Below are positions 1 through 54,142 of a stretch of DNA of 56,699 bases, in pieces (positions within the stretch are counted from its first letter, which is position 1; each line of letters opens with the position of its first letter). Under the pieces are notes generated by a model that searched no databases, was not told the origin of the DNA, and worked only from the letters and a program-made list of their open reading frames with translations. The stretch is from a virus (lineage: Duplodnaviria; Caudoviricetes). The DNA is taken from positions 1 to 56,699 of IMG/VR virus record IMGVR_UViG_3300044731_000819, one strand, 5' to 3'. The position numbers and the translations under genes were made by a program.

Positions 1-731
1 ATGATTTTTGTCTCACCACAATTTCTCCAAATGTTCCATAATAATGCCCACATTTCAGCAGTCCAATATTGAATTTGTCCATTACCAATTGGAAATCTTT
101 TTTGAAAATCAAATAACTTATCGTATAATATAATTGAATCAATGTAGACCTTATTCCAAAATTCAAAGTCAGTATTTTTGATGATGTATTGTCCCCCTCC
201 AGAACTTTCCTGATATTTTTTAACACAACTTAATTCAACACCAATAACATCACACATCTCCTGAATTAATTGTTCAGGTTCCAAATCTTTATATTGTTGT
301 TCGTGTCGGTCAGCAACCGTTTTAATATACTCATATCCAATGTATCCTTTGGTATCCGACAGATAAGTTATCTCATCATCAACATACTCTGAATAGTCAG
401 GTAATTCTCTAAAGATGATATCTGCGTCGTGCAAAAAGAAAACTTTTCCAAGTTCAGGAAATTCTTCAATCCATTTACTAATTAGATATGGTTTAATACT
501 CGGAATATAATGTTTCTTAAATCTATCATCCTTATAGAAATGAACATTATATCCATAATTTCTTAATTCCAAAGCACCTTCAGATGGTTCTTTTTGACCA
601 TTACATAACCCATAAATTATGTGAATATTTTCAGGTTTAATTCCCTTACTTACGAAATTATGACCATAGATTTTTGCCTGCCAGTGAAAATACGGAACAT
701 CAGGCTGTGCTGTAACATAAATTAACTCCAT
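1..731 (-). CDS. GT-A (DxD) glycosyltransferase resembling GT96/GT95 (peptidyl-Ser galactosyltransferase / Hyp arabinosyltransferase); 3' end runs off the window
   Basis: Not in the ORF track. ATG at 731; hand translation gives MELIYVTAQPDVPYFHWQAKIY...HYIPSIKPYLISKWIEE...FFLHDADIIFREL...SGGGQYIIK...QYWTAEMWALLWN, with no stop found before the window edge. DAD follows a hydrophobic strand. Confidence 0.75.
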   Translation of the reverse strand, partial: MELIYVTAQPDVPYFHWQAKIYGHNFVSKGIKPENIHIIYGLCNGQKEPSEGALELRNYGYNVHFYKDDRFKKHYIPSIKPYLISKWIEEFPELGKVFFLHDADIIFRELPDYSEYVDDEITYLSDTKGYIGYEYIKTVADRHEQQYKDLEPEQLIQEMCDVIGVELSCVKKYQESSGGGQYIIKNTDFEFWNKVYIDSIILYDKLFDFQKRFPIGNGQIQYWTAEMWALLWNIWRNCGETKI

Positions 732-768
732 AGTAAAAAATAATAATTAAATTGTCAAATTTGTATAT

Positions 769-801
769 AAAAAAAAACCACCTATTATGTAGGTGGTTTT
801 T
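769..801 (-). terminator. Intrinsic terminator after the fibre gene cluster
   Basis: Inverted repeat AAAAACCACCTA-ttatg-TAGGTGGTTTTT; ends in a T9 run on the minus strand, just downstream of the stop at 820. Confidence 0.8.
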
Positions 802-819
802 AAGATTATTCTTATTTTA

Positions 820-3054
820 TTAGTTAGTAGTAATCCTACCGTTAAATCCTGTTGGGTAGTTGAATGATGAGTTATAATTATCCCTAACAGTAATTGCCGC
901 CCCTGTAGGTGCTGCGTTCCCTGAACCATTAACACTCGCAAATCCTCTTGAACCATCCATTTGAAATAAATTTAATGCTCCAATAAATGTTGGTCCGGCA
1001 CCTCCAGTCCAAACAAACATATTGTTTATTTGTGTGGTATTTAATCCTGAACCTTCAGTGTATAATATAAGCCAAGCAACCCCCTGACCATTGGCTAAAA
1101 CTAATGGTTGGGTTGCAACAGTCGCGTCAAAATCAATTGAATTTCCAGCACTACTGATAATTAATTGACCCATATTTTGCATAGGTGAAAATCCTGAAAC
1201 ATCACCATAAACTGTATTATTACCACCAATTATTAATTGTGCTAAAGAGGTTATTCCTGTAAATACTGATAGATTACCTGTTATTGTATTACCACTGTTA
1301 GTCACCGTCATAGCTGTTGGGGTCAGTGTGTTACCTTTTTGGAATATATTGAATGATGTTGTGGTTAATGATGGGTTCATTGTTCCTAAATCCCCGCTGA
1401 TTGTATTATTTCCAGTTATCATAAACCTGTTTGATGGTACAACTAAATTTGAAAGTGGTCCTGATATGGTATTATTACCCGCAATTAATAAACTATGCAT
1501 TCTACCTGAAACATTATTAGAAGTACCAGATAATGTTCCACTTATAGTATTAGCACCTCCAATTAAAACCCTACTTTGGTATGGTTTTAAAGTTAAATTA
1601 CCGGTGATAGTATTACCAGTGGTAATGTATGTCATATTATACGTGGATGCGTTAAATTTACCATTAAAAATGGCAATTGAGTTAATGTCCGGTAAATCAC
1701 TAAAATTACCCGATATAGTATTATTACCACCTATAATTATTTGGCCAGTATTTGGTATAGCTGTATAATCTTGGTTAACAAATCCTGTAATATTTCCAGT
1801 TAAAGTATTATTACCTCTAATATTTAAAGACCTCAAACTTGTTGGTAAATTGCTAACATTTCCACTAACCGTGTTTAAGTCTCTAATCGTAGGTAAAGAA
1901 CCTCCCGAAAGAGGTATTTCACACATTTCGTATCCAAAATCAGTATAGAGTAAAGTAGTCATGGATAATGTCTTAATAGTATTTGGTAGATTATTTACAT
2001 CTCCATAATAAGTTCCACCTGCAAGTGATAACGTTTGTAAGTTAGTACATGCTGAAAATTCGGCAATATCTCCAGTTATCCATGTATTCCAGTCATTAGC
2101 ATTTATTTCTTGAGCATTAACCATTTTACCAAGTTCCGCCGTTGTTGCCGATATTGTCCCAGTATTATTTAATAAATCATAACAGTCATTATAAGGTCGA
2201 TACAACGCTCGACGGGCAGGACTTACAAATCTAGATTGACCAATATCAACTGAGAAATTCCCTATAAAACTAGTTATAACTCCAGGTGTTAATGTTTGAG
2301 CACTGATAGTAACTGTTTTGGTTCCCGCAGTGAAAGAACCTGTATAAGTATGCATTGCAAACTGATTAGTATTTGTAGGTGTAAATGCAGTTACGTTTCC
2401 ATCCCCCCAATCAATTGACATAGGAAGTATCGAAGTTGAAAAGAAAGAGATTCCAAAATAACCATTTCCTGCAAAATCAAACTGAGCCGTTTCATATAAT
2501 GTCGCCCCACTTGATTGTGTTGGAGTTGGTGTTGGGAAATTAGAAGGAGTTGGTGTCTGTGATGGAGGTACTGGTCCTACCCATTCACCATCAATTTCTT
2601 CACATATCAATGTAGGAACGTCTTCACTCCAAGTTAAATTGGTTCCGTCTACTAATCCTTGAGCACAAATATAAAACCCAGCACTATCACCTGCTTGGGT
2701 TGTGTAACTATCCGAATTACCATAACAATCCGTATAATTAAGAACAGCACCAGCCGTCCATCCATCGGTTGGAGTAACAAACCAATAGTAACAAGTGGCT
2801 TCAAATGTCGCAGTTGGTGTTGGTAAAACACTACAAGTGTCTTGTTGAACAACAAGACATCCGTTATCTGATTGAGCACTTAACGATATCTGATTATACC
2901 CATCAAATGTTGACGGTAATGGTACAACATAGGGAAATACAGAAATATCAGTTATTTGTGTTGGGTGCGTATAACAATAATCATTTGATGGGTAAGTACA
3001 AATTGTTAATGTTGCGGGTGGCCCTGAGTAAGATGATATCCAAATATATGGCAT
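820..3054 (-). CDS. Putative tail fibre / receptor-binding protein (Cys-rich N-module, PT linker, PKD-like domain, LRR-like solenoid)
   Basis: 744 aa. IDWGDG..HTY PKD-like motif; about 12 LRR-like repeats of the type LxIxGxNTISGxLSxL; PSQTPTPSNFPTPTPT linker; last gene of the baseplate/fibre cluster. Confidence 0.6.
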   Translation of the reverse strand: MPYIWISSYSGPPATLTICTYPSNDYCYTHPTQITDISVFPYVVPLPSTFDGYNQISLSAQSDNGCLVVQQDTCSVLPTPTATFEATCYYWFVTPTDGWTAGAVLNYTDCYGNSDSYTTQAGDSAGFYICAQGLVDGTNLTWSEDVPTLICEEIDGEWVGPVPPSQTPTPSNFPTPTPTQSSGATLYETAQFDFAGNGYFGISFFSTSILPMSIDWGDGNVTAFTPTNTNQFAMHTYTGSFTAGTKTVTISAQTLTPGVITSFIGNFSVDIGQSRFVSPARRALYRPYNDCYDLLNNTGTISATTAELGKMVNAQEINANDWNTWITGDIAEFSACTNLQTLSLAGGTYYGDVNNLPNTIKTLSMTTLLYTDFGYEMCEIPLSGGSLPTIRDLNTVSGNVSNLPTSLRSLNIRGNNTLTGNITGFVNQDYTAIPNTGQIIIGGNNTISGNFSDLPDINSIAIFNGKFNASTYNMTYITTGNTITGNLTLKPYQSRVLIGGANTISGTLSGTSNNVSGRMHSLLIAGNNTISGPLSNLVVPSNRFMITGNNTISGDLGTMNPSLTTTSFNIFQKGNTLTPTAMTVTNSGNTITGNLSVFTGITSLAQLIIGGNNTVYGDVSGFSPMQNMGQLIISSAGNSIDFDATVATQPLVLANGQGVAWLILYTEGSGLNTTQINNMFVWTGGAGPTFIGALNLFQMDGSRGFASVNGSGNAAPTGAAITVRDNYNSSFNYPTGFNGRITTN

Positions 3055-3090
3055 TTTATTTTATTTTTTATTTTTTATTTTTTTATTCTA

Positions 3091-5601
3091 TTAACACATT
3101 ACAGCATTTGTTATATAACCACCACTATCAACTTGTATTGCAATTGTTACTGGTGTATATCCATAAACGGTATACTTACAATTTGAAACTGAAATCCAAT
3201 TATTTCCACCATTAACAACGTTTTGTGTTTGGGCGTCTTGGAATCTGAATGGAATTGTCCCAAAGTTATTAACAATATAATCCAACGTATTTGATTGAGG
3301 TGCCGGATTAATCAAATAACTCTTTTGGACTGAATAATCACTACAAGAAGTCGCACTAGTTGCAGCACTGACAGTACTCACACCAGCAACCATCATATAA
3401 GTATTTGCTCCAGGTGCAGGTAATTTTATGAAACTTATTGCAGTATCACTTGGAGTCGGAAATAAAGGAACTGGTGGATTTACATATAAGTCAAAAGGTC
3501 CTTGTACAGGTATAAGTGTTGCTCCTTGTGTTGTGGCAGTTATTGAGAAGTTAATATATTCAAATCCAAAAGTACCTGAAATAAGTTTATACTCTAAAAC
3601 ATTATATCCTGACGAATCTAAGTTTGAACTGAATCCGCTAGTAGTTCCTAATGGGTAATTAGTCCAAGTAGCAGCATTTCCATCATAAATACTAAATTGC
3701 GCATTTGGTATGTCAGTTCCTATTGGGAATGGCCATTCGAATTGAATATCAACGGTATCATTTGGACTTCCAATTATTACTATTTGTTCGATAGATGAAG
3801 CTGTTGATGCGGTTGATATAAACCCTGCTGAGCTATAAACATTTGCAACTCCATTATATTTAAATTGAACTGTTAATGGTGTCTCGTTGTTTTCACAATC
3901 AAAGCAAGAACCAAACTCATTCAAAGTTGTTATTTCAGGATAAGCGGGCTGTCCATCTAATCTATATCCAGTATATTCCCAACATCCTTCAAAATCTTGT
4001 AGAGTATATATTGAACCTTCAGTAATATCTGTTGGTTCGGTAAAGGTATAAATTTTACTTCCAGATAAGATATTTGTTAAATAAGCATTTAGGTCATTTT
4101 CAACTAATGATTGTGTAAATCCTGTAATAGTCGCATCAACCGCCCAACCGAAGTTTTTCAATCCAGGTCCTACCTGATATTGTAAGGGTAAATTTTGATA
4201 AGCACTTGTGCCCGAAAATACTGTAAATTTATTAAAATAACTAAGTGGAGTAAAATCAAAATACTGACCATTAGTCGTCGCTGAATATGCATTATACCTT
4301 TGATTTGGGTATGGCCATTGTGTTCCAGTAGTATCAAACAACCCTTCACAATATTTTGATTGGAAGTAAGAAGGTGCATATGGTATTTCCGCCTCAAGTA
4401 GTTCAATTGCCTGATATAATGTACCATATCCTTGCGCTTGATAAATAGGACCAAAAGAACTTGCCGCTGTAACTACTTGTGTTGGTACGGGGAAAAGAAA
4501 AACGTTTGCAAATCCATTTAAATTAATATTAACATCTTCCCAAACTTTTAACCAAGATTCATAATCTCTTTGGATAGAGGAACCTGAATATGAGCCTGAC
4601 GAGTATCCACCAAAAGCAGGACAAAAATTAGGAACTCTAATAACAGGTTGTGGGTTATTTGGATTCAAAACGGTAGGGGGAATGTTGTTAATAGCCACAA
4701 ACGAAGCATTAGCACCTTGGTTAAATTCGAAATATGGTTGTATAAAATTTGTTCCTCCACTAGTTGCAGTTTGTGACAAACATCCACCATAACTAGGTCC
4801 TGTCCTCTCCACACAAGATTCATTCAAAACAATTATTGATATATAATTTGTATCTTGACTGCCTATGTTTGCAAGTTGACATCCTGCCAATGTGTAGTTA
4901 CTATGATTAAATGGAACCCCTTTACTATATCCAAGAGTGTTTGGTAATGGATTTCCTGTTGCCAAATCTTGACCTAACGCCATTCTCCTTACAACTTGGC
5001 TACTAGCCACATTACCATTACTACCATCAGAATACGTAACACTACCCATTTCAATTCTAACGTTTGTTGAGTCTGATAATGTTCCGCCTGTTGTAGACCC
5101 TAAATAAGGATAACATGGCCAATTGACATATCTCTCGTTAACTACAGGTATTTCATATAAATTTCCAGTATAACCACTATTTTGTACTAGATTATAATAC
5201 CAAGTCCTTATAGCGGTAGATGCTCCACTTAATGTTTCTATAGCAGGTCCTATTACCGCAACTCCATCGGGATATGAAGTCGATGTATCATAATATACAT
5301 ATATATTTTTATCAAGTTGTAGACCACAAGATTCAAATCCCCAAGTTCCGGGAGGGTCAATACCACAAAGTACTAATTGTGGAACTGTAAATAAAGTAGT
5401 ACTAGCCGATAATTGAATATAACAATATTGGTCATAATCAAAACTAGTTGGTAATGTATACCAAGCGGGTAGAGAAGTTGTTGGGGTTATTTGACCAACA
5501 TTATAACAAGTCCCAATTGTAGGTCCTGGCAAGTTAGCCTCACAAGCAATTATATCTGATGCAACTGTACCCGTATAATTTGTAATTAGTATTTGTGCCA
5601 T
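3091..5601 (-). CDS. Putative virion fibre/appendage protein
   Basis: 836 aa, rich in Thr/Ser/Gly/Cys. N-terminal module resembles that of 820..3054. TATTTAT motif upstream. Confidence 0.5.
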   Translation of the reverse strand: MAQILITNYTGTVASDIIACEANLPGPTIGTCYNVGQITPTTSLPAWYTLPTSFDYDQYCYIQLSASTTLFTVPQLVLCGIDPPGTWGFESCGLQLDKNIYVYYDTSTSYPDGVAVIGPAIETLSGASTAIRTWYYNLVQNSGYTGNLYEIPVVNERYVNWPCYPYLGSTTGGTLSDSTNVRIEMGSVTYSDGSNGNVASSQVVRRMALGQDLATGNPLPNTLGYSKGVPFNHSNYTLAGCQLANIGSQDTNYISIIVLNESCVERTGPSYGGCLSQTATSGGTNFIQPYFEFNQGANASFVAINNIPPTVLNPNNPQPVIRVPNFCPAFGGYSSGSYSGSSIQRDYESWLKVWEDVNINLNGFANVFLFPVPTQVVTAASSFGPIYQAQGYGTLYQAIELLEAEIPYAPSYFQSKYCEGLFDTTGTQWPYPNQRYNAYSATTNGQYFDFTPLSYFNKFTVFSGTSAYQNLPLQYQVGPGLKNFGWAVDATITGFTQSLVENDLNAYLTNILSGSKIYTFTEPTDITEGSIYTLQDFEGCWEYTGYRLDGQPAYPEITTLNEFGSCFDCENNETPLTVQFKYNGVANVYSSAGFISTASTASSIEQIVIIGSPNDTVDIQFEWPFPIGTDIPNAQFSIYDGNAATWTNYPLGTTSGFSSNLDSSGYNVLEYKLISGTFGFEYINFSITATTQGATLIPVQGPFDLYVNPPVPLFPTPSDTAISFIKLPAPGANTYMMVAGVSTVSAATSATSCSDYSVQKSYLINPAPQSNTLDYIVNNFGTIPFRFQDAQTQNVVNGGNNWISVSNCKYTVYGYTPVTIAIQVDSGGYITNAVMC

Positions 5602-5623
5602 AGTAAAATGTTCTTTTTATGTA

Positions 5624-5630
5624 ATAAATA
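5624..5630 (-). promoter_or_regulatory. TATTTAT putative late-promoter motif
   Basis: 22 nt upstream of ATG 5601; the same motif recurs before many genes. Confidence 0.55.
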
Positions 5631-5669
5631 TATTGATTCAAGTATTTTTGTAACTAGTTTAATAATAGA

Positions 5670-8600
5670 TTATTTTTTTGTTGGGGTTGGTGTTTTAGTT
5701 TTTGTAGGCGTGGGTGTCGGTGTCGAATTACAGAATCCTCCAGTACAAGTACCTACTTTGTTATAAAATACTCTAAATGGAGGTGTTGGTGGTTTAAATC
5801 CTTTAGCACAGAAGTTAGCACTTTTTGTTAATCCAGGAACATTTAATACCACCTCTCTGTCTATACAATCAATATAATTAATGGAGATAGGTGTTGGGTT
5901 AGTGTTATCAACATTATAACACTCACAGGCCGCTTGGGTTGGTGTTATTGTTGGAGTAACAGTTGGTGTTTTTGTAACTGTAGGTGTTGGTGTTTTGGTT
6001 TTAGTAGGTGTCGGAGTCTGAGTTTTAGTATTAGTAGGTGAAGGTAAAATAATGGTTGTTTTAGTTGGTGTAGGTGTGAGTGTTGGTGTTTTTGTAACTG
6101 TAGGTGTAGGTGTTTTAGTTTTTGTAACTGTAGGTGTAGGTGTTTTAGTTTTTGTAACTGTAGGAGTTGGTGTAACAGTCATTGTATTTGTTGGTGTTGG
6201 CGTGTTACTACAATAATCAGGAGCCTTATAGGTATATAATGCACTGCAACTCACGTCGCTAAATGTTACATATATAGAACAATACTGCCCATCTGCAGGT
6301 ATATCTAAGAACGATATATTATAATCAGTACTAAATGGTGGATAATATACTATTTGAGTTCTTGTACATCCGTTAGCAATTGTTAAAGTTCCAGTTGCAG
6401 GTGGATTAGTGATATGAACAACATTTGTACCTGAAATATAATAAGTTGACGTTAATGGATTACACGCCGATGGACTAATACTATCTATTGTTATAGAACA
6501 AGGAGTCGCATCACTTGGTGATGGAGTATTTGTAGGTGTTGTAGTTATAGTATTTGTGGGAGTTACAGTCGGTGTAATACTATTTGTTGGAGTCCAAGTA
6601 GGTTGTGGTGTCAGTGTTGGAGTAACACTGACTTGTGGTGAAGGTACAGGAATTAAACCTGACGTTTCTGTTGGTGTTGGACTTGGTGTTGGTGTAATTT
6701 GAATAACTTGGTCACAAGTTACATTCATTAATATTCTAACCGATATTTTAACCGCATCGGATGGTAATAATGGATTATCACACAAACTATTGATTACAAT
6801 TCTTCCACTTTCATAATCCACAATTAAACTACCAAATACCCCCAAACTATTTAAATAGTTTTGAACAAGTTGAGCATATTGTAAATTTGTTGGTACGTCG
6901 GTTAAAGATTCTGACGTATATAAATCAATCGTTGTCGCAGTCGTCCCAACTTCTATATCAACATAAAAGTATGCTAAGTCCATCACACAATTTATTTGTC
7001 CGTCAGTCAATTCAACAAATGTTTGATTTAACATTTGTAAAAATCCAACCGTATCATCATTACCACAAACAAAATTACCGCTACCAAAATTATAACTATA
7101 TGGAGTCACTTCTCGTAATTCACATTTGATAGTTGCAGTCTTTCTTGTAAAACATCCTTGGGAATCAGTAACTGTTAATGCATAATTTCCATTATCCAAA
7201 TTATATACCGCAAATCCTGTTTGACCTGAAACATTACCTTCCCAATTTAAAGTATATGGTGGAGTTCCACTATTAATAAACGCAGTTAAAGTTCCTTTAG
7301 GTAAACATCCTGAATCCAACAAGTTAAAATCAACTCCGTTAGAACCACCAACTGTAAAGTTTTTAGTAATAGAACAACCTGAATTGTTTGTAAGTGTAAC
7401 ACCATAAGTTCCTTGTGGGACACCTTGTAATGTATAATCAGTTGTTAAATTTCTAATAGTCGCACCATTAGATAATGTTAAAGTAAATGTTTGACCAGTT
7501 ACAGTTGTGGTAATATCTACAAGACACGTTCCATTATTTATACCACAAGTTGTATTGGTCGGTATTAGTTCAAAATCAAAACCTAAATCTTGAGATAATG
7601 TAATTGTGTCGGTATAAGTACAGGCTGACGTTGAGTCAATTATACTAATTGTGTATGTACCTGCCGTTAAACTACCAAAAGTAATTGTTGAATTTGCAGG
7701 TAGATTAGATTGGGTTGAAATGAACCCATTAGTATTAGTACAAGACGCAGATATGGGCGCTCCTCCACCATTAATAGTTGTTGATATATATCCACTATTA
7801 TTTGAACAGTCCCTAAACCCATTTGTTGATGATATTATACCGAATGAGTTTGCAGTTTGTAGATTGAAAGTTTGAGAAACATTACAACTACTACTAACCC
7901 CCGTAAAACTAAAAGCCCCTGAACCTAATCCCGTAAAGGTAACTGTTCTTCCGCTAGTATATGTATCCCCATTTGAAGTATAGTAAGTAATAGGTAAAGA
8001 ACCTCCCGATAACTCAATTGAAACAATTCCATCGTTTACAAAACAAGACGGATTTGTAAAAGAAAATTCACCAATACCCAATCTATCATCTAAACCAACT
8101 ATAACACTTTCAGTAACTTCACATCCCGAACCGTCAGTAACCGTTACAATAAATGTATCATTTGTTAATGCTGTTAAATGGTAATCATTAAGTTGTAATC
8201 CAACATTGGTAGACCAAGTAACTGTGACTGGAGGTGTTTCATTATATAATGTTAAATAAATCTCCCCGTTTGGTCTTAAAGCACAGGGTGAGTTATTGAC
8301 AACATCAGTATTAATAGATAAACTACCATACGAACTATCAATAACCATAGTTCCAGTATTAGCACTACAACCTCCCCCATCTTCAATAATTACATAATAC
8401 GCATTAGGCGATAAACCAGATATCGTATATGGATTATCGTTAGTAGTTACCACAGATAATAAAGTGTCATCAACATCGTATAAACTAAATGTATTTGGTC
8501 CACCTAAATTTGGCGCTAAGGTAATTTCAATTTCCCCATTATTTAATCCACAAGTACTGTCTGTAGCAATAGTATTTGCGGAAATACCTGAAGAAATATA

Positions 8601-8864
8601 GAAATTAATTGTTGCACTATTGTTTACAGGTGTAGCATAATCGGTAACCAAAATAGTATAAGTACCGGCCGTTAATCCTGTAAAATTATATGCTTCTCTA
8701 ACTAATATCACAGAATCTCCAACATATGGAGATGTAATTTGAGCCGTGAATGGACCTGAACCCTGTAAAATGTTTAAGGTCGCAGCACCACTATTACATA
8801 AAATGTCACCACCGCAACATCCTGTTAAACTACTAATTGTTATACTAATTAAATTTTCAGCCAT
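5670..8864 (-). CDS. SprB-repeat adhesin-like virion protein with mucin-like Pro-Thr repeats
   Basis: 1064 aa. About 7 repeats of C..N.G.I.....GG..P..Y.......GL..G.Y...VTD..GC (SprB-like), followed by long TPTPTVTKTK tracts. Confidence 0.7.
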   Translation of the reverse strand: MAENLISITISSLTGCCGGDILCNSGAATLNILQGSGPFTAQITSPYVGDSVILVREAYNFTGLTAGTYTILVTDYATPVNNSATINFYISSGISANTIATDSTCGLNNGEIEITLAPNLGGPNTFSLYDVDDTLLSVVTTNDNPYTISGLSPNAYYVIIEDGGGCSANTGTMVIDSSYGSLSINTDVVNNSPCALRPNGEIYLTLYNETPPVTVTWSTNVGLQLNDYHLTALTNDTFIVTVTDGSGCEVTESVIVGLDDRLGIGEFSFTNPSCFVNDGIVSIELSGGSLPITYYTSNGDTYTSGRTVTFTGLGSGAFSFTGVSSSCNVSQTFNLQTANSFGIISSTNGFRDCSNNSGYISTTINGGGAPISASCTNTNGFISTQSNLPANSTITFGSLTAGTYTISIIDSTSACTYTDTITLSQDLGFDFELIPTNTTCGINNGTCLVDITTTVTGQTFTLTLSNGATIRNLTTDYTLQGVPQGTYGVTLTNNSGCSITKNFTVGGSNGVDFNLLDSGCLPKGTLTAFINSGTPPYTLNWEGNVSGQTGFAVYNLDNGNYALTVTDSQGCFTRKTATIKCELREVTPYSYNFGSGNFVCGNDDTVGFLQMLNQTFVELTDGQINCVMDLAYFYVDIEVGTTATTIDLYTSESLTDVPTNLQYAQLVQNYLNSLGVFGSLIVDYESGRIVINSLCDNPLLPSDAVKISVRILMNVTCDQVIQITPTPSPTPTETSGLIPVPSPQVSVTPTLTPQPTWTPTNSITPTVTPTNTITTTPTNTPSPSDATPCSITIDSISPSACNPLTSTYYISGTNVVHITNPPATGTLTIANGCTRTQIVYYPPFSTDYNISFLDIPADGQYCSIYVTFSDVSCSALYTYKAPDYCSNTPTPTNTMTVTPTPTVTKTKTPTPTVTKTKTPTPTVTKTPTLTPTPTKTTIILPSPTNTKTQTPTPTKTKTPTPTVTKTPTVTPTITPTQAACECYNVDNTNPTPISINYIDCIDREVVLNVPGLTKSANFCAKGFKPPTPPFRVFYNKVGTCTGGFCNSTPTPTPTKTKTPTPTKK
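6088..6164. repeat. 30-bp tandem repeat (about 2.5 copies) encoding TPTPTVTKTK
   Basis: tttgtaactgtaggtgtaggtgttttagtt at 6091-6120 and 6121-6150, plus a partial third copy. Confidence 0.9.
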
Positions 8865-11812
8865 TAACTACAACTTATACTAAAATCTACGTTTAATTTT
8901 ATTTCAATATCACTACTTCCAAGTAATGCATTAAATCCTAAATATTTAATCAAAACATTACTGTCAATTATCTCAAAAGTATAACCATAACTACTTAAAT
9001 TCGGTAAATATTGATTCAAAGCATTTGTCCAATCAGAGTTTGCTGGAGCATCAAATGGTCCATTACCATTATAAATTATACTTGAGATTACTTCAGTTCC
9101 ATTTAATACAACAACCATTCTCCATGTCGTCGATACTGAGTTTTGATTACAAGTATACCCTTCAGATATTTTACCAGAAACATAATTAAAGATTATTTCA
9201 TTTAACAATGATTGGAAACTTGTATATGAAGTAGTTCCATTTAACCAAGGAAATATTGGGAATGTTACAACTCCTTGACATGCTCCGTGTAAAAATAAAT
9301 CACCGTCAATAATACAAGGCTTACAAAGAGCTGGTGGTATAAATGAACTACAACTTCTTGGTATTTTATATGTATGTTTCTGTCTTTGTAATGGAGCATT
9401 ATTATATTTTATACCTGTATTCCATATTGTTGAAGATGGGATTAATTGTTCCGCTAATTTTGGCCAATACGTCCCCAAATTTTTAACGTAGTCAATAAGT
9501 TTTTGATATGTAAAATTATCGTTTGGTATCCCCACTTGACTAGCCGATTCCAAATATCTCCAATAAATCAAAGACACATCATCATATCCACTTGATACTT
9601 GTCTATTAGCAACATTAACTTTGTTTTGCCAAAATGAATTAGCAAATTCAAAGAATGTTTGTTTGTTAGGCGGAACATTAGTCGTAGTCATTAATGCTTT
9701 ACCATAAACCTGTTGAGTTGTTGGTGTGTTAGGAATAGGATACCCATATTTAGAGGACATATTCCATACATCAAAAACAAGTCCTGCAGCAGGATTCATA
9801 AATAAATCAATATTTTTAACGTTCAATACTAATCTTTCGTCATCAGCATAATAAAACGCATTAAATCCTCCTTCGTTTGAAATTCTTGACTTATCTCTAA
9901 AAGACCAGCTCTTTTTATTATCACTAATCTTTTTAAGTTTAAATCCTAAATCCATATATGGGAAATTTCTAAATCTATCAAGATATTGTTGACCATATGT
10001 AAATTTCTTAAAGTCAGTCTGTACATTAGTGTTTTGACCTGTAAATACAGATTGTGTTTCACTAACATCCTGATTACTTTGGTGTGGTGGTGTTAATTCA
10101 TACCAACCCGCACCTAATTGGAAGAAGAATGAACTACTATTTGGAGGTGTTTTTGGATAACCTTCATTATCAATTGGGTAGTCCCCCTCTAACACATCTA
10201 CAGTAACCACATTAGTAGTAGCACTATACCCTGAGAATGTTTGCCCAAAGATTGAAAATGTGTCATTTGGATTAAACACAATAGTTTCTTCTAACTTTGT
10301 TCCTCCTGAAATTTTAGCCCACTCTGTGTTAAAATCACGCATGTTGATTTTTTGGTCGGCTAAATAAATTGTTTCGTTAAACTCAATCAACGCTTCAGGA
10401 GCTCCAACCAATCTCAATAAGAATTCTAATGCTCTTCTAGTTCCTTTTGACTTGAACAAGTAAGCCGAATTCAATATTAAATTCTTATAGAACTGATAAT
10501 TAATCTCACTTGGTGTCAAACTTCTTGACATACCGGGATATGGAGATTTTGTATCATTACCAAAAACAGATTTTAAAAAATCTTCTTCAGTAATAGGAGA
10601 AACGTTAATATTCCAACCTAATGTTTGCGATAGATTTTTTAATAACTCCGATGGAATATCATTCTTTGTGTTATAATTTACAGAATTCATATAAGCCAAT
10701 GCGTCTATGAATTTCTTAACTTCGTCAAAACTTCTACCATAGATGTTTAAAACTTTTTCAACCCTTTGGTCTGAAGTATCAAATTCTTTAAATGAGTCGG
10801 TAACTAAAAATCTTGATATTAGGTTTGTTTTTGACGCATCAAAACTTGTGGCAATTTGATTAAGTTTTGTTATATATGAGGTAAAATTGTTTGTTGATAT
10901 ATCTAAATTCCATACTCCCGATAAAGGCCAAGTTACTGATTCAGTTCCAACATATGTTGTTCCATCATCATTTTGTTTTGGGACTTGGAATATTGCAGTG
11001 TATTTTGGAGTAACTAATCGATTTAAAAGGTATTTTTCAATCTCATCAAATGGTTGTGTAAATGCAACCTCAGTATAATAATCATTTGGTTTAATTATTA
11101 ACACTTCATAAGAATTTAAATCTCCTGAAAATGGTTTACCAGCAACTGTTAAATTCAAATATCCTGTAGTAAAACTATTTGTAGGGGTCATATTCAATAT
11201 TGGATATTGAACATCTCTTACATAAACCGCATACTTACTATATTCTAAAGTCATGTTTCTCAAATATGAAACTTCAAATTCTTTTGTTGCGATGTTTCTT
11301 GTTGAGTTAACGGTATAATCAACCTCAAATGGATTAGATGACTTTTCTAATGGTACACTAAATGTTGTTGTGTCTTCCTCAATATCGTATTCAATATTAA
11401 CAGCAGTATACCCTGAAACGAAATTTCCACCCAAAGCGTAAACTTCAACCGCCGCAGGAAAGTAATTTAAGATTTGAGTAATAGAAGCCGCAATTCTTTT
11501 AGTTAAAGGCCCGTAAGTTGAGAATTTGGTCACATTTGAAAGGTCAAAATTTGGATATACTCCAAATTCTTTTGCAACAATCTTTTTAGTTTCCGCAACC
11601 GATTCAATCTGTAAATTATCTAGTGTGATTGGTGCGGAAAATGCCCCAATAGAAAAAGTTCTATTAACTTTCTCACTTAAACTTGAGGTGAACTCAAAAT
11701 TACCCTGTGTTAATCCCCCTCCGTCTACAACTTGGAACCCAACAATATTGTCTGAAAACGTTCCGGCTCCGCTAGATGGTCTCGGTGGATATCTATATAA
11801 CTTTCTCGCCAT
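8864..11812 (-). CDS. Baseplate wedge / tail protein (P2 gpI / T4 gp7-like domain)
   Basis: 982 aa. DIPSELLKNLSQTLGW...AYLFKSKGTRRALEFLLRLVG matches the 'L..LA...G W ... KGT..A+' pattern of gpI/gp7-like wedge proteins. Confidence 0.6.
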   Translation of the reverse strand: MARKLYRYPPRPSSGAGTFSDNIVGFQVVDGGGLTQGNFEFTSSLSEKVNRTFSIGAFSAPITLDNLQIESVAETKKIVAKEFGVYPNFDLSNVTKFSTYGPLTKRIAASITQILNYFPAAVEVYALGGNFVSGYTAVNIEYDIEEDTTTFSVPLEKSSNPFEVDYTVNSTRNIATKEFEVSYLRNMTLEYSKYAVYVRDVQYPILNMTPTNSFTTGYLNLTVAGKPFSGDLNSYEVLIIKPNDYYTEVAFTQPFDEIEKYLLNRLVTPKYTAIFQVPKQNDDGTTYVGTESVTWPLSGVWNLDISTNNFTSYITKLNQIATSFDASKTNLISRFLVTDSFKEFDTSDQRVEKVLNIYGRSFDEVKKFIDALAYMNSVNYNTKNDIPSELLKNLSQTLGWNINVSPITEEDFLKSVFGNDTKSPYPGMSRSLTPSEINYQFYKNLILNSAYLFKSKGTRRALEFLLRLVGAPEALIEFNETIYLADQKINMRDFNTEWAKISGGTKLEETIVFNPNDTFSIFGQTFSGYSATTNVVTVDVLEGDYPIDNEGYPKTPPNSSSFFFQLGAGWYELTPPHQSNQDVSETQSVFTGQNTNVQTDFKKFTYGQQYLDRFRNFPYMDLGFKLKKISDNKKSWSFRDKSRISNEGGFNAFYYADDERLVLNVKNIDLFMNPAAGLVFDVWNMSSKYGYPIPNTPTTQQVYGKALMTTTNVPPNKQTFFEFANSFWQNKVNVANRQVSSGYDDVSLIYWRYLESASQVGIPNDNFTYQKLIDYVKNLGTYWPKLAEQLIPSSTIWNTGIKYNNAPLQRQKHTYKIPRSCSSFIPPALCKPCIIDGDLFLHGACQGVVTFPIFPWLNGTTSYTSFQSLLNEIIFNYVSGKISEGYTCNQNSVSTTWRMVVVLNGTEVISSIIYNGNGPFDAPANSDWTNALNQYLPNLSSYGYTFEIIDSNVLIKYLGFNALLGSSDIEIKLNVDFSISCS

Positions 11813-21738: not shown

Positions 21739-23577
21739 TTAAGAAACTGTAACTGATTGGAAGTTTTTCACCCTTACTCTAATATCTTTGGTCGGGAACC
21801 TAACTTGATATACTTGGTTTGGTAATGCGAAAATAGTTCCATCTTGTGGTGCAATCAATTTTGTCGCAGAATCGGCATATGCCATAGAAGTCTGAGATGA
21901 TGAATATTCCCCTCCTATTTCATTGAATATGTCAATTTGTGTGACGGATATCACTCCATTCTCAGATTGTAAAATTCTATTAATCTCTGATATATTAACA
22001 TTCTGTCCCAATTCTCTATTAGCAGGACTAAAATAATTAGATATCTTATCAATAATTGATGTGATGATATTACCCTGATTTTGTGTTGATTCTAATACAA
22101 CATAAACATCTAAACTCAAATCAACCACATCAGCAGTTTCAATTGCAATGTAGTCATTAATCATTCTGAAGTTAGATAGATAAGTTGCAAGGTTATCCAA
22201 CAATGCATTTGATACAGTATTAGTCAACGCTCCACCTGTATCATATGATAAGATTTTAACTTTAATCTTATTCTCTTCTTCCATTACCGCAACTTTAGCA
22301 GGTGCCCCAAATTGACTTGGCATTTTTCTAATTAACGCCTCATAGTCATTAACTGTTACCGCTCTGTTTTGACTTGCGAAGTTAAACGCCACATAGTTTC
22401 TAACCTCTTCAAGTGTAGGTTGTCCTGCTCCACCGATTGCCGCAGTTACGTTATTACAACGTAAAGAATTAATAACCGCAGTGTTTGTAGTTTCAGATGG
22501 TCCGTTTACTACAAAGATAACAGTTCCAACCTGATTGATTGTATTAACACCAATATTACTTCCAACACCACCACCTGAACGATACTGAATAAACAATGTC
22601 GTATTTGGTTTAAGTGTTGAACCTAATGAGAAGTTATTTAAGAAATTTTGGATTGTCGGTAAAGTTCCTGAATTCGTGAATTCTCTCAATTGGTCTTCAG
22701 CCGAACCTGTTCCACCACCAAAAGTTAATTTCATAAATCCCTCAGGTGTAAATTCACTGATAAATCTATTATTAGTTTGTATCCAAGTACCAATCTTAAC
22801 ACCAGGCTTATCTGATGGTTTTGTTGAATCTTCAATGAAAACTCTATCTTGAGCTAATGCGTCCACCTCATACCATCTACCATCAACACCCAAAAATTCT
22901 TGTGGACCCGGTACGTTAGCATAATTGGTTCCGTCTTTTTGGATTACACTTGTAATACCCAAAACATTCTTACCAGGTAAGAAAATTTCATAGAATGGTC
23001 TAACATCGTTTGGTGTGATTACTTGTTTGAATACTTTAGTAACACCATTAACAACCAATTCTCTTTTAGTAATAGTATAATTAATTAAGTTACCTCTTGA
23101 GTCAAAATTAGGAATCTTTAATCTGTTTGGATATCCTTGTGAGTTATATGGTGAAGTAAAATCAATATCGTAAATTGTCTCAAATATTTGTCCCGCCCCA
23201 ACAACTTGAGAACCTCTTCTCAAAATACCTTCATATCTTTCATCATCTTTATCTCCATTAGCCGGTACTGTAATTGAAAATTCAACTAACGCAACTGAAG
23301 GTCTTTGACCAGGAATTTTCAATCCATAAGTTCTTGCCAAATTATAAACTGATGAACGTTGTTGAGCAAATTGTAAAACTGTTTCTTGAACACTTCTATC
23401 AATATGATAGTGTAAGTTATCAGAAACCGCAGCATTCAAATCCATAAACACCGAGAACACCGATGCATCATTGAAGTTATCAATTAATTCAGGGTAGTAA
23501 GCTTTTACAAAATTTACAAGTTCTGTTCTAATTCCTTGGAAGTCCCTTACGGTATACGATATTCTTTTTTCAGCCAT
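21739..23577 (-). CDS. Baseplate wedge subunit (T4 gp6 / baseplate J-like)
   Basis: RDFQGIRTELVNFVK N-terminus; ETVLQFAQQRSSVYNLARTYG; SQNRAVTVNDYEALI motif; adjacent to the gp25-like gene. Confidence 0.85.
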   Translation of the reverse strand: MAEKRISYTVRDFQGIRTELVNFVKAYYPELIDNFNDASVFSVFMDLNAAVSDNLHYHIDRSVQETVLQFAQQRSSVYNLARTYGLKIPGQRPSVALVEFSITVPANGDKDDERYEGILRRGSQVVGAGQIFETIYDIDFTSPYNSQGYPNRLKIPNFDSRGNLINYTITKRELVVNGVTKVFKQVITPNDVRPFYEIFLPGKNVLGITSVIQKDGTNYANVPGPQEFLGVDGRWYEVDALAQDRVFIEDSTKPSDKPGVKIGTWIQTNNRFISEFTPEGFMKLTFGGGTGSAEDQLREFTNSGTLPTIQNFLNNFSLGSTLKPNTTLFIQYRSGGGVGSNIGVNTINQVGTVIFVVNGPSETTNTAVINSLRCNNVTAAIGGAGQPTLEEVRNYVAFNFASQNRAVTVNDYEALIRKMPSQFGAPAKVAVMEEENKIKVKILSYDTGGALTNTVSNALLDNLATYLSNFRMINDYIAIETADVVDLSLDVYVVLESTQNQGNIITSIIDKISNYFSPANRELGQNVNISEINRILQSENGVISVTQIDIFNEIGGEYSSSQTSMAYADSATKLIAPQDGTIFALPNQVYQVRFPTKDIRVRVKNFQSVTVS

Positions 23578-23581
23578 AATT

Positions 23582-24040
23582 TTATATATTAATTATTACA
23601 AAATCTTTAGAGTTAAATACGTTATCTGTAATAACATAATCAATCCTAACTTTTGCAGTATATTCTCTATTACTTAATCCCGTCATATTATAACTTCGTC
23701 CTCCTGAACTTTCTGTAGATACTGAAGAGTCAACGTCGTCATTTGATGCGTCTGTAATTGAGATATTTGAAATTTTAAGGTTAGGTATATATTTTTCACA
23801 AGATTGTCTAATTTCAGATTCAATATTATCGAAAGTCAAACTATCCATAGGTTCAAAAATATATTCATACAATCTACTTCCAAAATCAGGTAAATAATAT
23901 CTAGACCCTCTTCTTGTTAATAAGAGATGAACCAAATTATTCCTTATTTCATCTTCCGCAGTTTGTGATAAAGTTAAATATTTTCCTACCTGTGAAATTC
24001 TGAATGGAAAATCAATACCATATGTTTTACCATTTGCCAT
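23582..24040 (-). CDS. Baseplate wedge subunit, gp25-like
   Basis: GIDFPF...IRNNLVHLLLTRRGSRYYLPDFGSRLYEYIFEP signature. Confidence 0.9.
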   Translation of the reverse strand: MANGKTYGIDFPFRISQVGKYLTLSQTAEDEIRNNLVHLLLTRRGSRYYLPDFGSRLYEYIFEPMDSLTFDNIESEIRQSCEKYIPNLKISNISITDASNDDVDSSVSTESSGGRSYNMTGLSNREYTAKVRIDYVITDNVFNSKDFVIINI

Positions 24041-27533: not shown

Positions 27534-27552
27534 AGTTTAAAAAGATAGTAAA

Positions 27553-50785: not shown

Positions 50786-53700
50786 TTAGATATTGTCAAA
50801 TGATGCTCCTGTTGGAGTTATTAAGAATTCAATATCAATGAACTCTAAAGATTTAGTTGGTTTAACATAGATTTTACCTACTAATTGGTTTCTGTCTAAA
50901 TCTTCAGCTGAAGATGAAACAGTCACACGGAAATCATATAAACCTCTGTCTCTTCTGATTGAGTCCAAGATAGGGTTAACTGCGTCTAAGAAATCTTGTC
51001 TTACTTTAGCGTCGTTTTGTTCAAACAACAATCTAACTGCTACCGCTGAAATCAACTTACGAGCTTGTAATAACAATCTTCTAACGTTCAATCTGTCAAG
51101 AGCCGATTCTCTAACTTGTAAGGTCTTGTTACCCCAAATTACAGTTCCTACGTCTGAGAAAGTTGCGATTGGGTTAATTCTTCCTTTGTATAGAGTATCT
51201 CTATCTTCTTGTGTTAACTTCTTACGTGCTTTAACTGCGTTTACAATACCACGTGTGTAACCCGCTGATGCGAACCAAGGGAACGCGATGTTATCAGTCA
51301 ACGCTAAGTTTCTACAAACTTCCGCAGTTGGTGGGATATAAATTTGTGTGTTGTTAACAGTATCACGAGTTAACACCCAAGGATAGTAAGTCGCAGTGTA
51401 GTTAGAGTCAATACCTGTTTGTTCTAATGAATCAACTACGTCTTGTGGGTAGATTAAATCTTCAGCAGTGAATGTCTGAACAAATAAGTTAATATCAGGA
51501 GTAGTACACAAGTAAATTGAGTCTGCTCTGTCAAATTCAACCATTTCAATTGCTGATTCAACCAAGTTAGAGTTATTTAACCAGTCAATACCAGGTGTTG
51601 CAAATACGTTAATGTTATTAGCTTCAGGATTTGCAAATGTTCTGATACCTAACAAGTATGCGTAGTAGTCAGTATTTGCCCAATCTTGAGTATTATCACC
51701 TACTGTGATTAACTTAAACATTCCCGCACCTGATGCGTTTGGATATCTTGCAGATGCGCAAGCTCCGTATAAGAAACCTCTTTGTCCGACTTGGAATAAG
51801 TCACCATTAGTTCTTGTTTCACGATAAATGTCCCATCCGTCAAATCCTCCTTGTACTAACAATGAGAACTTACGAGAGAATAATCTGTAGTATGGACTAG
51901 CAGGATTTGTTGGTTCAGAATTGAACGATGCCGCTCCAACTTCAAACGCTGACTCACCTGATGTAGTATACCCCGAAGGAATTTGAACAACAGTTGCACC
52001 ACTATCCATATGGAAACCTTTAGAAAGGAATGACCATTCATCACCTGTTGTGTCTTCACAAGGGTCGAGTGGTCCTTGTTTTCCTTTGTATTGGAAGTAG
52101 TCCCCATCATAACCGATTGTGTCTGAAATACCTAAATAAGTTCTTCTAACATTATCACCTGAACTTGTTCTTGGGAAATCTGTTCCGTCCGCAAGTCCAA
52201 ATGGTGGGTTGAAAGTTACTTCACCTGGGAAATCGTATTTTGTCTTATAAATTGGGAATCCTGTTTTAGCACCTGCGTATTGTCTTGATTTGTAACCTTC
52301 AAATCCACAAGGTAATGCGTCAACCGGAGCATCCACATTATAATCAACCATAATGTATTTAGAGTTTAATACAAATTCTCCATCAGACGAACCAATCTTT
52401 TTTGCGATATAGTTATTTAATGATGGGTCCATTGAACAGTTTGTAAATTTCTCTAAAACTACAGGTGATTCATCACTATCGTAATAATTTCTAACTACAA
52501 CATCAAATGTACCATTTGAGAATGAAATATTCAAAATCGACAATTTAACTTGGAAGTTCGCAGAATTACCGTCCGCAATTGATACAAATCTAAATAATCG
52601 ATAAACATTATTACCACGTAATTCAGAAACAACCCAAGGTGATGTTGGGCTTTGATATCTTTCCAAATACCAAGCTATTGATGTACCTGCGTTATAATCT
52701 TGTCTGTATCCAGGTAATGAGATTAATTCTGAACTTAATCCACGAATATAACCTTTATTCCAAGCCCAAGATAATAATGTTCCGTAACTTTCTTCTATAA
52801 ACAAAGGAACTGTAGTACGAGGTTTAGTAAAGTTACCATATCCCAAAACTTTAGTAATTGATGTAGCATCAGTTTCAGATAAACTAACTTTGAAATTAAA
52901 GTTTGTATTATCAATTGTAGTACCTGTGATTGCAAATGGAGCAAATGGATTTTGTTCTACAGCAGAATAACTACCACTAAAATCTAATCCTACTGAAGTT
53001 AAACCTGTAACTTGATAAGCCGGTCCATTAGAATTTGCAGTGTAAAAAGTATTTCCTCTTGAACGCATTGTTGCAACAACTAATTCGTGATATTCAGAAT
53101 AAGTTAAACCTGACATATTGAATGCGTAACCGTGAATAGTTCCTGAATAACACACATTTGGTGTTGTTGGAGTTGAAGTCACTGTTGGTGTCGGTGTTGG
53201 TGTTACGTCACAAGGATTGTAAGTTGAAGTTACTGTAACCGTTGGACTTGGAGTTGTAGTTGTTGTAACTGGAAGTAATTCCAAGTTTTCAATTACAACT
53301 ACAAAAGAATACCCTGAGTAATTTTCCGCAGTTGTTGGGTCAAATAATCCATAGTACCAAGCGTCATTATATGGTGAAGTGAAACTACATTCGTAAGACG
53401 AACTACCACTTGTACCCATAACATTTGTTACATTAGTAAATCCTGCACCTGTGTACGTGTTATAAACATCACCAGGAATGATACCCCAAATAGCAATAGA
53501 ATCACCACTCATTGTAGTATCAGTAAGAATTGATTGAACAAACGCTTTAAGGTCGGACTCTAAATTAGAAGTACCACCATTAAACTGTGTATAATTATCA
53601 TTTAATTTCGCCTCAATTTCATCAGGGAACATTCCTTGAAATGACAATTGTGAGATGAAGTTACTACATCCTGTAAATGCTACAGATATTTCACTTGTTC

Positions 53701-54142
53701 CTGTAATAATACAGTTAGTTTCACATATTGCTGGGTCAACTGCAAAGTTAGGTGTAGTTGAACAACTATAAGTGTAACCAACAGTTGATGAATCAACGTT
53801 AGCGACTGTTTTAATAGACCAAGAAGGTCCCGCATCATAACCAGATAATCCTAATACTCTCGTTACGAATAATTGATTTGATTGTTGTAAATACGCCTTG
53901 GCGATATACGACATTTCATATTTCGGAATTTGTGTGTTCACAAATTTTTCAGGAGTTGTCCCTCCGAAATAAGTTTGGAATTCATCATAGTTAGTGATGA
54001 ATATAGGTTCAAAAGCCGGACCTTTGGTAGCTTCTCCAACTAAACCCAAAGTTGTAACACCCACGCTAGATGTTACAAAGCTCAAGTCCCTTTCTGATGT
54101 ATAAACACCAGGCGAAACGAATACTTTGTTTGCTGTTGCCAT
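50786..54142 (-). CDS. Contractile tail sheath protein (T4 gp18-like) with Thr/Pro-rich insertion
   Basis: FVSPGVYTSERDLS N-terminus; YYPW, PWFASAGYTRG, INPIATF..G.VIWGNKTL..LDRLNVRRL, EFIDIEF C-terminal motifs. Confidence 0.95.
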   Translation of the reverse strand: MATANKVFVSPGVYTSERDLSFVTSSVGVTTLGLVGEATKGPAFEPIFITNYDEFQTYFGGTTPEKFVNTQIPKYEMSYIAKAYLQQSNQLFVTRVLGLSGYDAGPSWSIKTVANVDSSTVGYTYSCSTTPNFAVDPAICETNCIITGTSEISVAFTGCSNFISQLSFQGMFPDEIEAKLNDNYTQFNGGTSNLESDLKAFVQSILTDTTMSGDSIAIWGIIPGDVYNTYTGAGFTNVTNVMGTSGSSSYECSFTSPYNDAWYYGLFDPTTAENYSGYSFVVVIENLELLPVTTTTTPSPTVTVTSTYNPCDVTPTPTPTVTSTPTTPNVCYSGTIHGYAFNMSGLTYSEYHELVVATMRSRGNTFYTANSNGPAYQVTGLTSVGLDFSGSYSAVEQNPFAPFAITGTTIDNTNFNFKVSLSETDATSITKVLGYGNFTKPRTTVPLFIEESYGTLLSWAWNKGYIRGLSSELISLPGYRQDYNAGTSIAWYLERYQSPTSPWVVSELRGNNVYRLFRFVSIADGNSANFQVKLSILNISFSNGTFDVVVRNYYDSDESPVVLEKFTNCSMDPSLNNYIAKKIGSSDGEFVLNSKYIMVDYNVDAPVDALPCGFEGYKSRQYAGAKTGFPIYKTKYDFPGEVTFNPPFGLADGTDFPRTSSGDNVRRTYLGISDTIGYDGDYFQYKGKQGPLDPCEDTTGDEWSFLSKGFHMDSGATVVQIPSGYTTSGESAFEVGAASFNSEPTNPASPYYRLFSRKFSLLVQGGFDGWDIYRETRTNGDLFQVGQRGFLYGACASARYPNASGAGMFKLITVGDNTQDWANTDYYAYLLGIRTFANPEANNINVFATPGIDWLNNSNLVESAIEMVEFDRADSIYLCTTPDINLFVQTFTAEDLIYPQDVVDSLEQTGIDSNYTATYYPWVLTRDTVNNTQIYIPPTAEVCRNLALTDNIAFPWFASAGYTRGIVNAVKARKKLTQEDRDTLYKGRINPIATFSDVGTVIWGNKTLQVRESALDRLNVRRLLLQARKLISAVAVRLLFEQNDAKVRQDFLDAVNPILDSIRRDRGLYDFRVTVSSSAEDLDRNQLVGKIYVKPTKSLEFIDIEFLITPTGASFDNI

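Follow-up and report, generated by a model that had tools for sequence, protein, structure and literature searches.

A phage glycosyltransferase family whose genes co-vary with threonine-rich tails of virion proteins: candidate enzymes for virion O-glycosylation

INTRODUCTION

What does a glycosyltransferase act upon when its gene adjoins the baseplate and fibre genes of a phage, and may the phage decorate its own particle? This question is raised by the IMG/VR record IMGVR_UViG_3300044731_000819, a viral contig of 56.7 kb that is called the window here in its full length. It is about 19% complete according to CheckV and is therefore a piece of a jumbo phage. The gene in question lies at the start of the window:

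3..731, minus strand: glycosyltransferase gene, 5' part (243 of about 322 codons), GT-A fold family, phrog_4417

An earlier note on this DNA had proposed that the enzyme resembles the families GT95 and GT96 and glycosylates Pro/Thr-rich tail appendages of its own phage. The present analysis, which compares sequences, points to a threonine O-glycosyltransferase that would act on the virion proteins of the phage itself, and a probability of roughly two-thirds was assigned to this reading.

RESULTS

A predicted GT-A glycosyltransferase at the edge of the window

The open reading frame (ORF) starts with an ATG at position 731, encodes 243 amino acids (aa), and runs off the window start. Its full-length relatives have 322 to 326 aa, and the C-terminal 79 aa or so are absent from the window. 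As the earlier note had said, this ORF was missed by the ORF track, and all four motifs read from it are present in the order PYFHWQ, HYIPSIKPYLISKW, LHDADIIFR, and WTAEMW. The motif set comprises PYFHWQ, HYIPSIKP..W, a DxD motif (LHDADIIF), SGGGQY, and QYWTAEMW; a His and a Lys residue that are invariant in the family fall into the C-terminal part, past the window edge. The first 243 residues of P0001, a metagenomic protein of 322 aa, could be aligned without gaps and are identical to the ORF product at 218 of the 243 positions.

The ORF product matched phrog_4417 of the PHROGs collection, which is listed there with function unknown, at an E value of 3.9e-49 and 168 bits (residues 5 to 235 against profile positions 3 to 214 of 293). 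No Pfam family was found for ORF 3..731, P0001, P0009, or P0112, even at E ≤ 10. Sequence searches of the PDB yielded a match to CurM (E = 0.83), which was rejected as chance only, and matches to TALE repeats, which were spurious, with no single stretch passing. The family comprises 906 clusters at 90% identity and 803 representatives at 50% identity (E ≤ 0.001). Homologues are present in at least 594 confirmed viral contigs of IMG/VR, in 75 records of isolated phages, and at 131 loci of bacterial genomes, mainly of Bacteroidota, Bacillota, and Actinomycetota. Every one of the isolated-phage homologues shares less than 60% identity; most are from phages of Enterococcus, Lactobacillus, Staphylococcus, and Lactococcus, and the best, at 41%, is from a Chryseobacterium phage. 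A search for longer forms of the family returned one protein only.

Seven residues were invariant in 46 relatives with 29% to 61% identity, namely W17, Y75, D102, D104, Y130, G179, and M227, and the motifs therefore exceed what chance would give. In the same 46 sequences, H266 and K281 were also invariant and Q181 was nearly so. The two Asp residues of the DxD motif (D102 and D104) remained nearly invariant in a set of 150. The DxD/His/Lys/Gln pattern probably corresponds to the set that binds the metal and the diphosphate in GT8-type enzymes.

The AlphaFold2 model of a full-length relative, 90% identical, has a predicted local distance difference test (pLDDT) score of 97.5 and a GT-A fold with a single Rossmann-like alpha/beta/alpha domain. 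The nearest solved folds are of the GT8 type, that is glycogenin, LgtC, GlyE, and the Skp1 alpha-galactosyltransferase, together with UGGT (GT24) and WbbM. Identity to the nearest structures is 7% to 12%, and 9% to 10% to those of GT8. The fold is common to the phage family and the GT8-type GT-A enzymes, but the low identity and the lack of a GT8 Pfam match at E ≤ 10 place the similarity at the level of the fold only. The model supports the prediction that the family consists of metal-dependent (DxD) GT-A glycosyltransferases.

A scan of 76 long forms (at least 403 aa) among the 150 best representatives revealed second domains of the types Glyco_transf_7C (seven), GlcNAc-T PF11397 (three), GT2 (two), F5/8-C lectin-like (two), and O-FucT, GT6, GT25, and GT1 (one each). 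One family member of 1,915 aa combines GT1, methyltransferase, and GT2 domains. One would expect such fusions if the enzyme initiates or elongates a glycan. The view of the earlier note that the ORF is a glycosyltransferase is borne out by the model and by these fusions. Alternatively, the Thr tracts described below may receive a sugar-1-phosphate or another phospho-linked group, as is done by GT-A-like enzymes of the Stealth/GNPTAB type. One member of the family alignment A1 gave a weak Stealth_CR2 match (E = 0.17), but the conserved DxD...His...Lys series and the fusion partners are typical of sugar transferases, and a phospho-transfer is quite improbable.

Threonine tails of structural proteins and the enzyme gene occur together

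Ten of the 75 isolated-phage records with a homologue were inspected. All ten had a Thr-rich tract in a nearby gene, which was located directly upstream of the enzyme gene in nine. Where the tract-bearing protein carries an annotation, it is a tail-tube, capsid, or head protein. The Thr run ends a protein annotated as, or placed like, a tail-tube protein in phiFL1A, 1706, phiCTP1, 1_EfsPF36, and TPWB06, and an unannotated protein of 305 aa at the position of the capsid gene in R3.3. It is on a small "major tail protein" that is immunoglobulin (Ig)-like in Bacchae, on a small protein in Staphylococcus phage F1, and on a protein of 428 aa in the Chryseobacterium phage. In VPE25, the tenth phage, a gene for a Thr-tailed tail-tube protein is located 1.8 kb downstream of the enzyme gene. 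In Staphylococcus phage vB-SscS-F1 (L088:1767-3469), the annotation breaks the "major tail protein" into two parts, with an ORF of 295 aa (2230-3117) between them, a split that may reflect an intron or the insertion of a homing endonuclease gene. The tail protein of phiEf11 reportedly runs at 28 kDa instead of the predicted 21.5 kDa, and its authors suspected a modification; this phage was rejected as an example, since it has neither the enzyme gene nor a Thr tail.

For an analysis of co-variation, 78 viral loci were gathered via four unrelated capsid or tail-tube proteins and not via the enzyme. Each locus was scored for a poly-Thr tail at the C terminus of the structural protein and for the enzyme gene within the flanks. 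The gene was present at all 57 loci with a tail and at none of the 20 loci without one; a single frameshifted locus was set aside. For the phiFL1A-type tube (27 loci, 64% to 100% identity), the gene abutted in 12/12 tailed and 0/15 tailless cases. The respective numbers were 4/4 and 0/3 for the VPE25-type tube (seven loci) and 37/37 and 0/2, plus the frameshifted locus, for the R3.3-type capsid (40 loci), where a tailless locus without the gene is uninformative because only 249 bp of sequence follow downstream. The phiCTP1-type tube (four loci) was tailed and accompanied by the gene in every case. The earlier note had linked the enzyme to Pro/Thr-rich virion proteins by position only and had named their co-occurrence as a check; the link is now also one of co-variation in four families of structural proteins. 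What virion O-glycosylation calls for, a phage glycosyltransferase and exposed segments on major virion proteins that could be its acceptors, was found in these phages.

Two loci of the R3.3 type deserve a remark of their own. In L125 (10001-11119), the capsid orthologue of 372 aa ends in an Ig-like domain instead of poly-Thr, and the locus lacks the enzyme gene; this domain may be an alternative decoration of the same capsid. In L162 (10001-11860), the tail region of the capsid gene and the glycosyltransferase gene, which is in two pieces, are both out of frame, as might result from a sequencing error or from decay of the module.

A tree of the tail-tube core was calculated from 26 rows, without the tails and without the 5'-truncated L116. 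On this tree, the combined state of tail and gene required four changes, and at least two of them were forced by strongly supported branches. Tail and gene gained and lost as a unit would also be expected of a physical cassette, so that the gene could be a co-transferred recombination cassette without a functional tie to the tail, or its product could have lost catalysis and bind the Thr tails in the role of a chaperone or an assembly factor. The tails, however, are on unrelated proteins (tube, capsid, a small Ig-like protein, and fibres), both internal and terminal, and therefore indicate selection on the pair rather than one cassette. A loss of catalysis does not agree with DxD, His, Lys, and Gln residues that are invariant or nearly so in 46 to 150 relatives, down to 28% identity to the first sequence of the alignment. 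Both variants appear very improbable.

The enzyme may also glycosylate a target that is not a protein. This could be the phage DNA or a polymer of the host envelope (teichoic acid, lipopolysaccharide [LPS]/O-antigen, or capsule), the latter being modified to exclude superinfection or to mask receptors, and the Thr tracts would be ordinary flexible linkers that happen to be nearby. This would leave unexplained why tail and gene were found together or were both lacking at the 77 scored loci, and why they switched jointly at least twice on one tree. In the small phages, moreover, the enzyme gene is part of the late structural operon, where the genes for the tail tube and the tail chaperones flank it, and not of a lysogeny or DNA-metabolism module. 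We consider a non-protein target unlikely, and a glycosyltransferase of virion proteins remains the better explanation.

Pro/Thr tracts and neighbouring genes in the window

The features of the window that surround the enzyme gene or carry tracts are the following.

730..758, minus strand: promoter-like site (TTGACA, 17 nt, TACTAT), the second hexamer of which overlaps the glycosyltransferase ATG; weak evidence
773..801, minus strand: intrinsic-terminator-like hairpin with a 12-bp stem, a 5-nt loop, and a T run, separating the glycosyltransferase gene from the fibre operon
820..3054, minus strand: final gene of the baseplate/fibre operon, encoding 744 aa; Pro/Thr tract in aa 163-181 (nt 2512-2568)
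3091..5601, minus strand: 836-aa protein of no family, no tract under the rule given below
5670..8864, minus strand: 1,064-aa repeat-rich protein with three Pro/Thr tracts at nt 6501-6629, 5931-6209, and 5673-5732
5968..6173: 30-bp tandem array (6.9 copies, 75% matches) encoding the Thr-Lys-Thr-Pro decapeptide repeats in the longest tract
8864..11812, minus strand: 982-aa protein, its stop overlapping the next start
21739..24040, minus strand: baseplate wedge genes, gp6-like (21739-23577) and gp25-like (23582-24040)
50786..54142, minus strand: tail sheath of 1,118 aa; an inserted Thr/Pro tract covers aa 289-331 (nt 53150-53278)

A tract was defined as a stretch in which at least 10 of 15 residues are Pro or Thr, with at least three Pro. 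Under this rule, 3 of the 31 ORFs of the window had a tract, of which two belong to the fibre operon and one is the sheath gene; no replication gene was among them. The product of ORF 5670..8864, which has weak SprB- and SdrD-B-like matches, is the main candidate substrate. The product of ORF 820..3054, with weak matches to leucine-rich repeat or beta-roll-like proteins, is another candidate, and the sheath may be a further one. The longest tract is encoded by a tandem array and is therefore not due to chance composition. The tract coordinates reported earlier agreed within a few codons for ORFs 820..3054 and 5670..8864, as did the statements that two of the three large genes bear tracts, ORF 3091..5601 being the one without, that the sheath contains a similar tract, and that a terminator, the hairpin at 801..773, separates the glycosyltransferase gene from the fibre operon.

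A run of genes on the same strand extends from the gp25- and gp6-like wedge genes (24040-21739) to position 820, and several stops overlap the next start. The tail genes of the window also include those for a gp19-like tube protein and a baseplate hub. In the region from 1 to 9000, 47 promoter-like sites were found compared to 44.7 expected, and 6 terminator-like sites compared to 3.7 expected. No Shine-Dalgarno sequence was visible upstream of the glycosyltransferase ATG (window positions 729-760). A host from the Bacteroidota is hinted at by this lack, the -10 hexamer overlapping the start, a G+C content of about 32%, the relative in a Chryseobacterium phage, and the homologues in Bacteroidota.

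Other parts of the window are mentioned for completeness. Between the baseplate/fibre operon and the module of hub and sheath, a block for replication and nucleotide metabolism (25101-33328, on one strand) encodes the large and small subunits of ribonucleotide reductase, DnaB, an exonuclease, a UvsX-like protein, and SSB. Two giant ORFs between the tail modules, 34339-40863 (2,174 aa) and 41180-46222 (1,680 aa), have no Pfam family, and the latter contains a sub-threshold OmpA-like stretch.

Gene neighbourhoods in bacterial genomes and within the clade of the window

Among 80 loci of bacterial genomes, a tract was found at rank -1, directly upstream of the enzyme gene, in 23 of 76 ORFs. The other near ranks had 0/66, 1/72, 0/78, 1/75, and 1/65, and far ORFs had 16/319. 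A non-protein target would not explain such an enrichment in a single ORF. Loci L169 to L248 (for instance L182, L185, and L197) include two-domain homologues of 500 to 1,000 aa in Chitinophaga, Pedobacter, Mucilaginibacter, and Sphingobacterium, which have no neighbour with a Thr tract; the target of these chromosomal forms is probably cellular.

The clade of the window was represented by the 80 best viral loci, with enzymes 51% to 61% identical to P0001; 53 loci were left when copies of more than 90% identity were removed, and 25 of the loci were also read by eye. A tract was present at rank +1 in 50/79, at rank +2 in 55/73, at rank +4 in 43/68, and at rank -1 in 20/76 cases, compared to 15/263 in far ORFs. 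The most tract-rich genes are downstream of the enzyme gene, in the region that lies beyond the window. Upstream of it, homologues of the gene at 11812-12720 were found at 56, of ORF 8864-11812 (about 50% identity) at 69, and of the N-terminal 718 aa encoded by ORF 5670-8864 at 73 of the 80 loci. The enzyme gene is therefore a conserved neighbour of the baseplate/fibre operon. The intervening genes 3091-5601 and 820-3054, with a counterpart at none and one of the 80 loci, respectively, are local additions.

Probable remote kinship with the hydroxyproline O-arabinosyltransferases

In the comparison of the phage family with the hydroxyproline O-arabinosyltransferases (HPAT, GT95, PF23452), alignment A1 was aligned by hhalign with 36 bacterial PF23452 proteins, giving a probability of 74.1%, an E value of 2.8e-5, and 265 columns. 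The columns placed PYFxWQ, Y..(K/R)P...W, DxD, W..(E/D)M, the His, and the Lys one-to-one. In each of two bacterial genomes with a family homologue, a true PF23452 gene was found as well (scores of 34.6 and 23.4 bits), and one of these genes adjoins the homologue; the 36 proteins are relatives of the first of the two, all annotated as PF23452. Both PF23452 proteins matched the family profile in hmmsearch (E of about 1e-7 in a small search) and in hhalign (83.2% and 69.5%). In the ESM-Atlas, 18 of the 30 nearest named clusters carry PF23452, on 10% to 58% of their members. Bacterial PF23452 relatives are fused to the PqqD peptide-recognition domain, of the kind that recognises RiPP leader peptides, which fits a superfamily acting on peptides.

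The gathering cut-off of PF23452 (23.9 bits) was reached by no family member checked. Matches were seen in 2 of the 46 relatives, the best with E = 0.23 and below the cut-off, and in none of the 76 long forms at E ≤ 0.001. A six-frame search of the window and five phage records gave no candidates, and 301 genomes of Myxococcota gave one match. Judged by these sequence data, the family of the phages is probably a remote offshoot of the HPAT superfamily and falls outside GT95 as now defined. Of the term "GT95-like" used in the earlier note, a probable remote kinship with collinear motifs stands and the membership does not.

The earlier note had also stated that a best structural match to GT8 would argue against its proposal. 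GT8-type folds were indeed the top matches, but a true PF23452 protein gave the same ones, and the GT8 match therefore does not discriminate; the PDB contained no sequence relative of the HPAT domain. A resemblance to GT96, the peptidyl-serine alpha-galactosyltransferases, is a proposal of the earlier note.

The family shares the collinear motifs and the nearest solved folds with HPAT/GT95, the acceptors of which are Pro-rich, extended, low-complexity protein segments that may be likened to the phage tracts. It differs in context, viral and cytoplasmic instead of Golgi, and in the likely acceptor, threonine instead of the hydroxyproline of GT95 or the serine of GT96, with no prolyl hydroxylase found as a partner. 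The latter was sought as PF13640 in five records, the window and four relatives of 192 to 318 kb, three of them 93% to 100% complete. None of the five contained the 2-oxoglutarate-Fe prolyl hydroxylase that might have been expected from the earlier proposal, and a control search was positive in 2 of 14 genomes. Hydroxyproline chemistry is unlikely because of this result and because the clearest tracts are almost pure Thr. A literal equivalent of GT95 or GT96, acting on hydroxyproline or serine in Pro-rich tracts, would agree with the profile similarity and its collinear motifs, with the neighbours in the ESM-Atlas, and with the proline in the tracts of the window. It is nevertheless hardly credible, since no prolyl hydroxylase accompanies the enzyme, the tracts with the cleanest co-variation have little or no Pro or Ser, and no member checked reached the HPAT cut-off. 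Threonine remains the likelier acceptor. Concerning sugar-nucleotide enzymes, a search for which the earlier note had named as a check, an NAD-dependent sugar epimerase/dehydratase was present in three of the five records, all three being related jumbo genomes; the window carried none.

DISCUSSION

The reading of the enzyme as a threonine O-glycosyltransferase of virion proteins builds on the fold, the conserved DxD motif, the fusions with glycosyltransferase domains, and the co-variation with Thr tracts. From these, we infer catalysis, Thr as acceptor, a donor sugar, and an anomeric outcome, which would be retention if the analogy with the nearest folds holds. The enzyme would be made with the late proteins and would act in the cytoplasm before or during assembly. 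Using a common nucleotide sugar of the host as donor and a metal bound by the DxD motif, it would put the sugar onto the hydroxyl groups of Thr in disordered, low-complexity Thr or Pro/Thr tracts. In the small phages of Gram-positive bacteria, the acceptor would be the C-terminal poly-Thr tail, usually encoded immediately upstream of the enzyme. In the jumbo myophage and its relatives, the acceptors would be internal tracts of the sheath and of large baseplate/fibre proteins, the genes of which surround that of the enzyme. The finished particle would then bear a mucin-like brush of O-glycans on tube, capsid, sheath, or fibres, a coat that may serve shielding, stability, or adhesion. As to the wider idea of a portable module, in which a poly-Thr glyco-tag on any exposed virion protein and a dedicated, adjacent GT-A enzyme give tailed phages a mucin-like coat, repeatedly gained and lost in phages of Bacillota and Bacteroidota and in freshwater-type jumbo phages, with the enzyme as an overlooked viral and bacterial branch of the superfamily of the extensin-modifying HPAT enzymes of plants, we would give it even odds.

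Several points weigh against this reading and need to be considered together. The 78 loci include many near-copies, and the neighbourhood evidence from the clade of the window is phylogenetically non-independent. The clean co-variation concerns C-terminal poly-Thr tails in phages of Gram-positive bacteria, and the tracts of the window are internal Pro/Thr repeats, connected to this result by analogy and by the neighbourhood at the level of the clade. Pro/Thr linkers are common in fibre-like proteins anyway. The enzyme gene in the window is truncated, with the genes 3' of it outside, and Pfam scans of 19 ORFs together with searches of the whole window for GT2 and epimerases revealed neither a nucleotide-sugar enzyme nor a second glycosyltransferase. 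At 55 of the 80 bacterial loci, no tract was present within three ORFs; of the long two-domain forms in Chitinophaga, Pedobacter, and related bacteria, nearly all are at such loci. The family is therefore not tied to Thr tracts everywhere and probably has other, cellular uses as well. Several observations could be taken in favour of a non-protein target: the long chromosomal forms of Bacteroidota without a Thr-tract neighbour, the terminator and promoter-like site that set the enzyme gene apart from the fibre operon in a unit of its own, the presence among the nearest folds of LgtC and WbbM, which act on lipooligosaccharide/LPS, and the four to seven GT2 matches each in four of the five records, all from related jumbo phages. 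The joint presence of tail and gene in the small phages nevertheless favours a glycosyltransferase of virion proteins.

Glycosylation of virion proteins as such is a known phenomenon, although, to our knowledge, it has been documented so far only for mycobacteriophages. There, capsid and tail-tube subunits are reported to bear glycans at their C-terminal ends that act as a shield (PMC12619734, citing Freeman 2023), phage-encoded glycosyltransferases are associated with these glycans, and recognition of the particle is affected (PMC12619734). The same classes of proteins bear the C-terminal Thr tails described here, as known from sequence. Several features set the candidate system apart from that of the mycobacteriophages as it is described there: an enzyme family without a Pfam name, an acceptor tag that can be recognised in the sequence, a single enzyme gene adjoining its presumed substrate, tracts internal to fibres and sheath in the jumbo phages, and different hosts (Bacillota, Bacteroidota, and the uncultured hosts of jumbo phages). 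The unnamed enzyme family, the sequence-readable acceptor tag, and the much wider host range are what would be new. A literature search, the coverage of which was without most subscription journals and supplements, found no account of the phrog_4417-type family and none of phage structural proteins with poly-Thr tails.

A cellular counterpart is the glycosylation of serine-rich-repeat adhesins in streptococci and staphylococci, which starts with a pair of GT-B enzymes and involves a dedicated export pathway. The phage enzyme is in contrast a single GT-A protein, and the virion proteins are never exported.

If such a portable module exists, one could predict from sequence, by a simple rule that covers both the enzyme and its acceptor, that hundreds of phages have glycosylated virions, easily grown gut and dairy phages among them. 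The spread would cover the viral contigs (at least 594), the 75 isolated-phage records, and the 131 bacterial loci with a homologue. For phage therapy and dairy phages, this would bear on stability, on shielding against antibodies and proteases, and on adhesion to mucus or surfaces, and for cryo-electron microscopy maps of tails and capsids on unmodelled density. A short, genetically encoded tag and one enzyme could possibly become a tool that glycosylates a chosen protein in the cytoplasm. A large family of "hypothetical proteins" would gain a function and a tie to an enzyme family of the plant cell wall.

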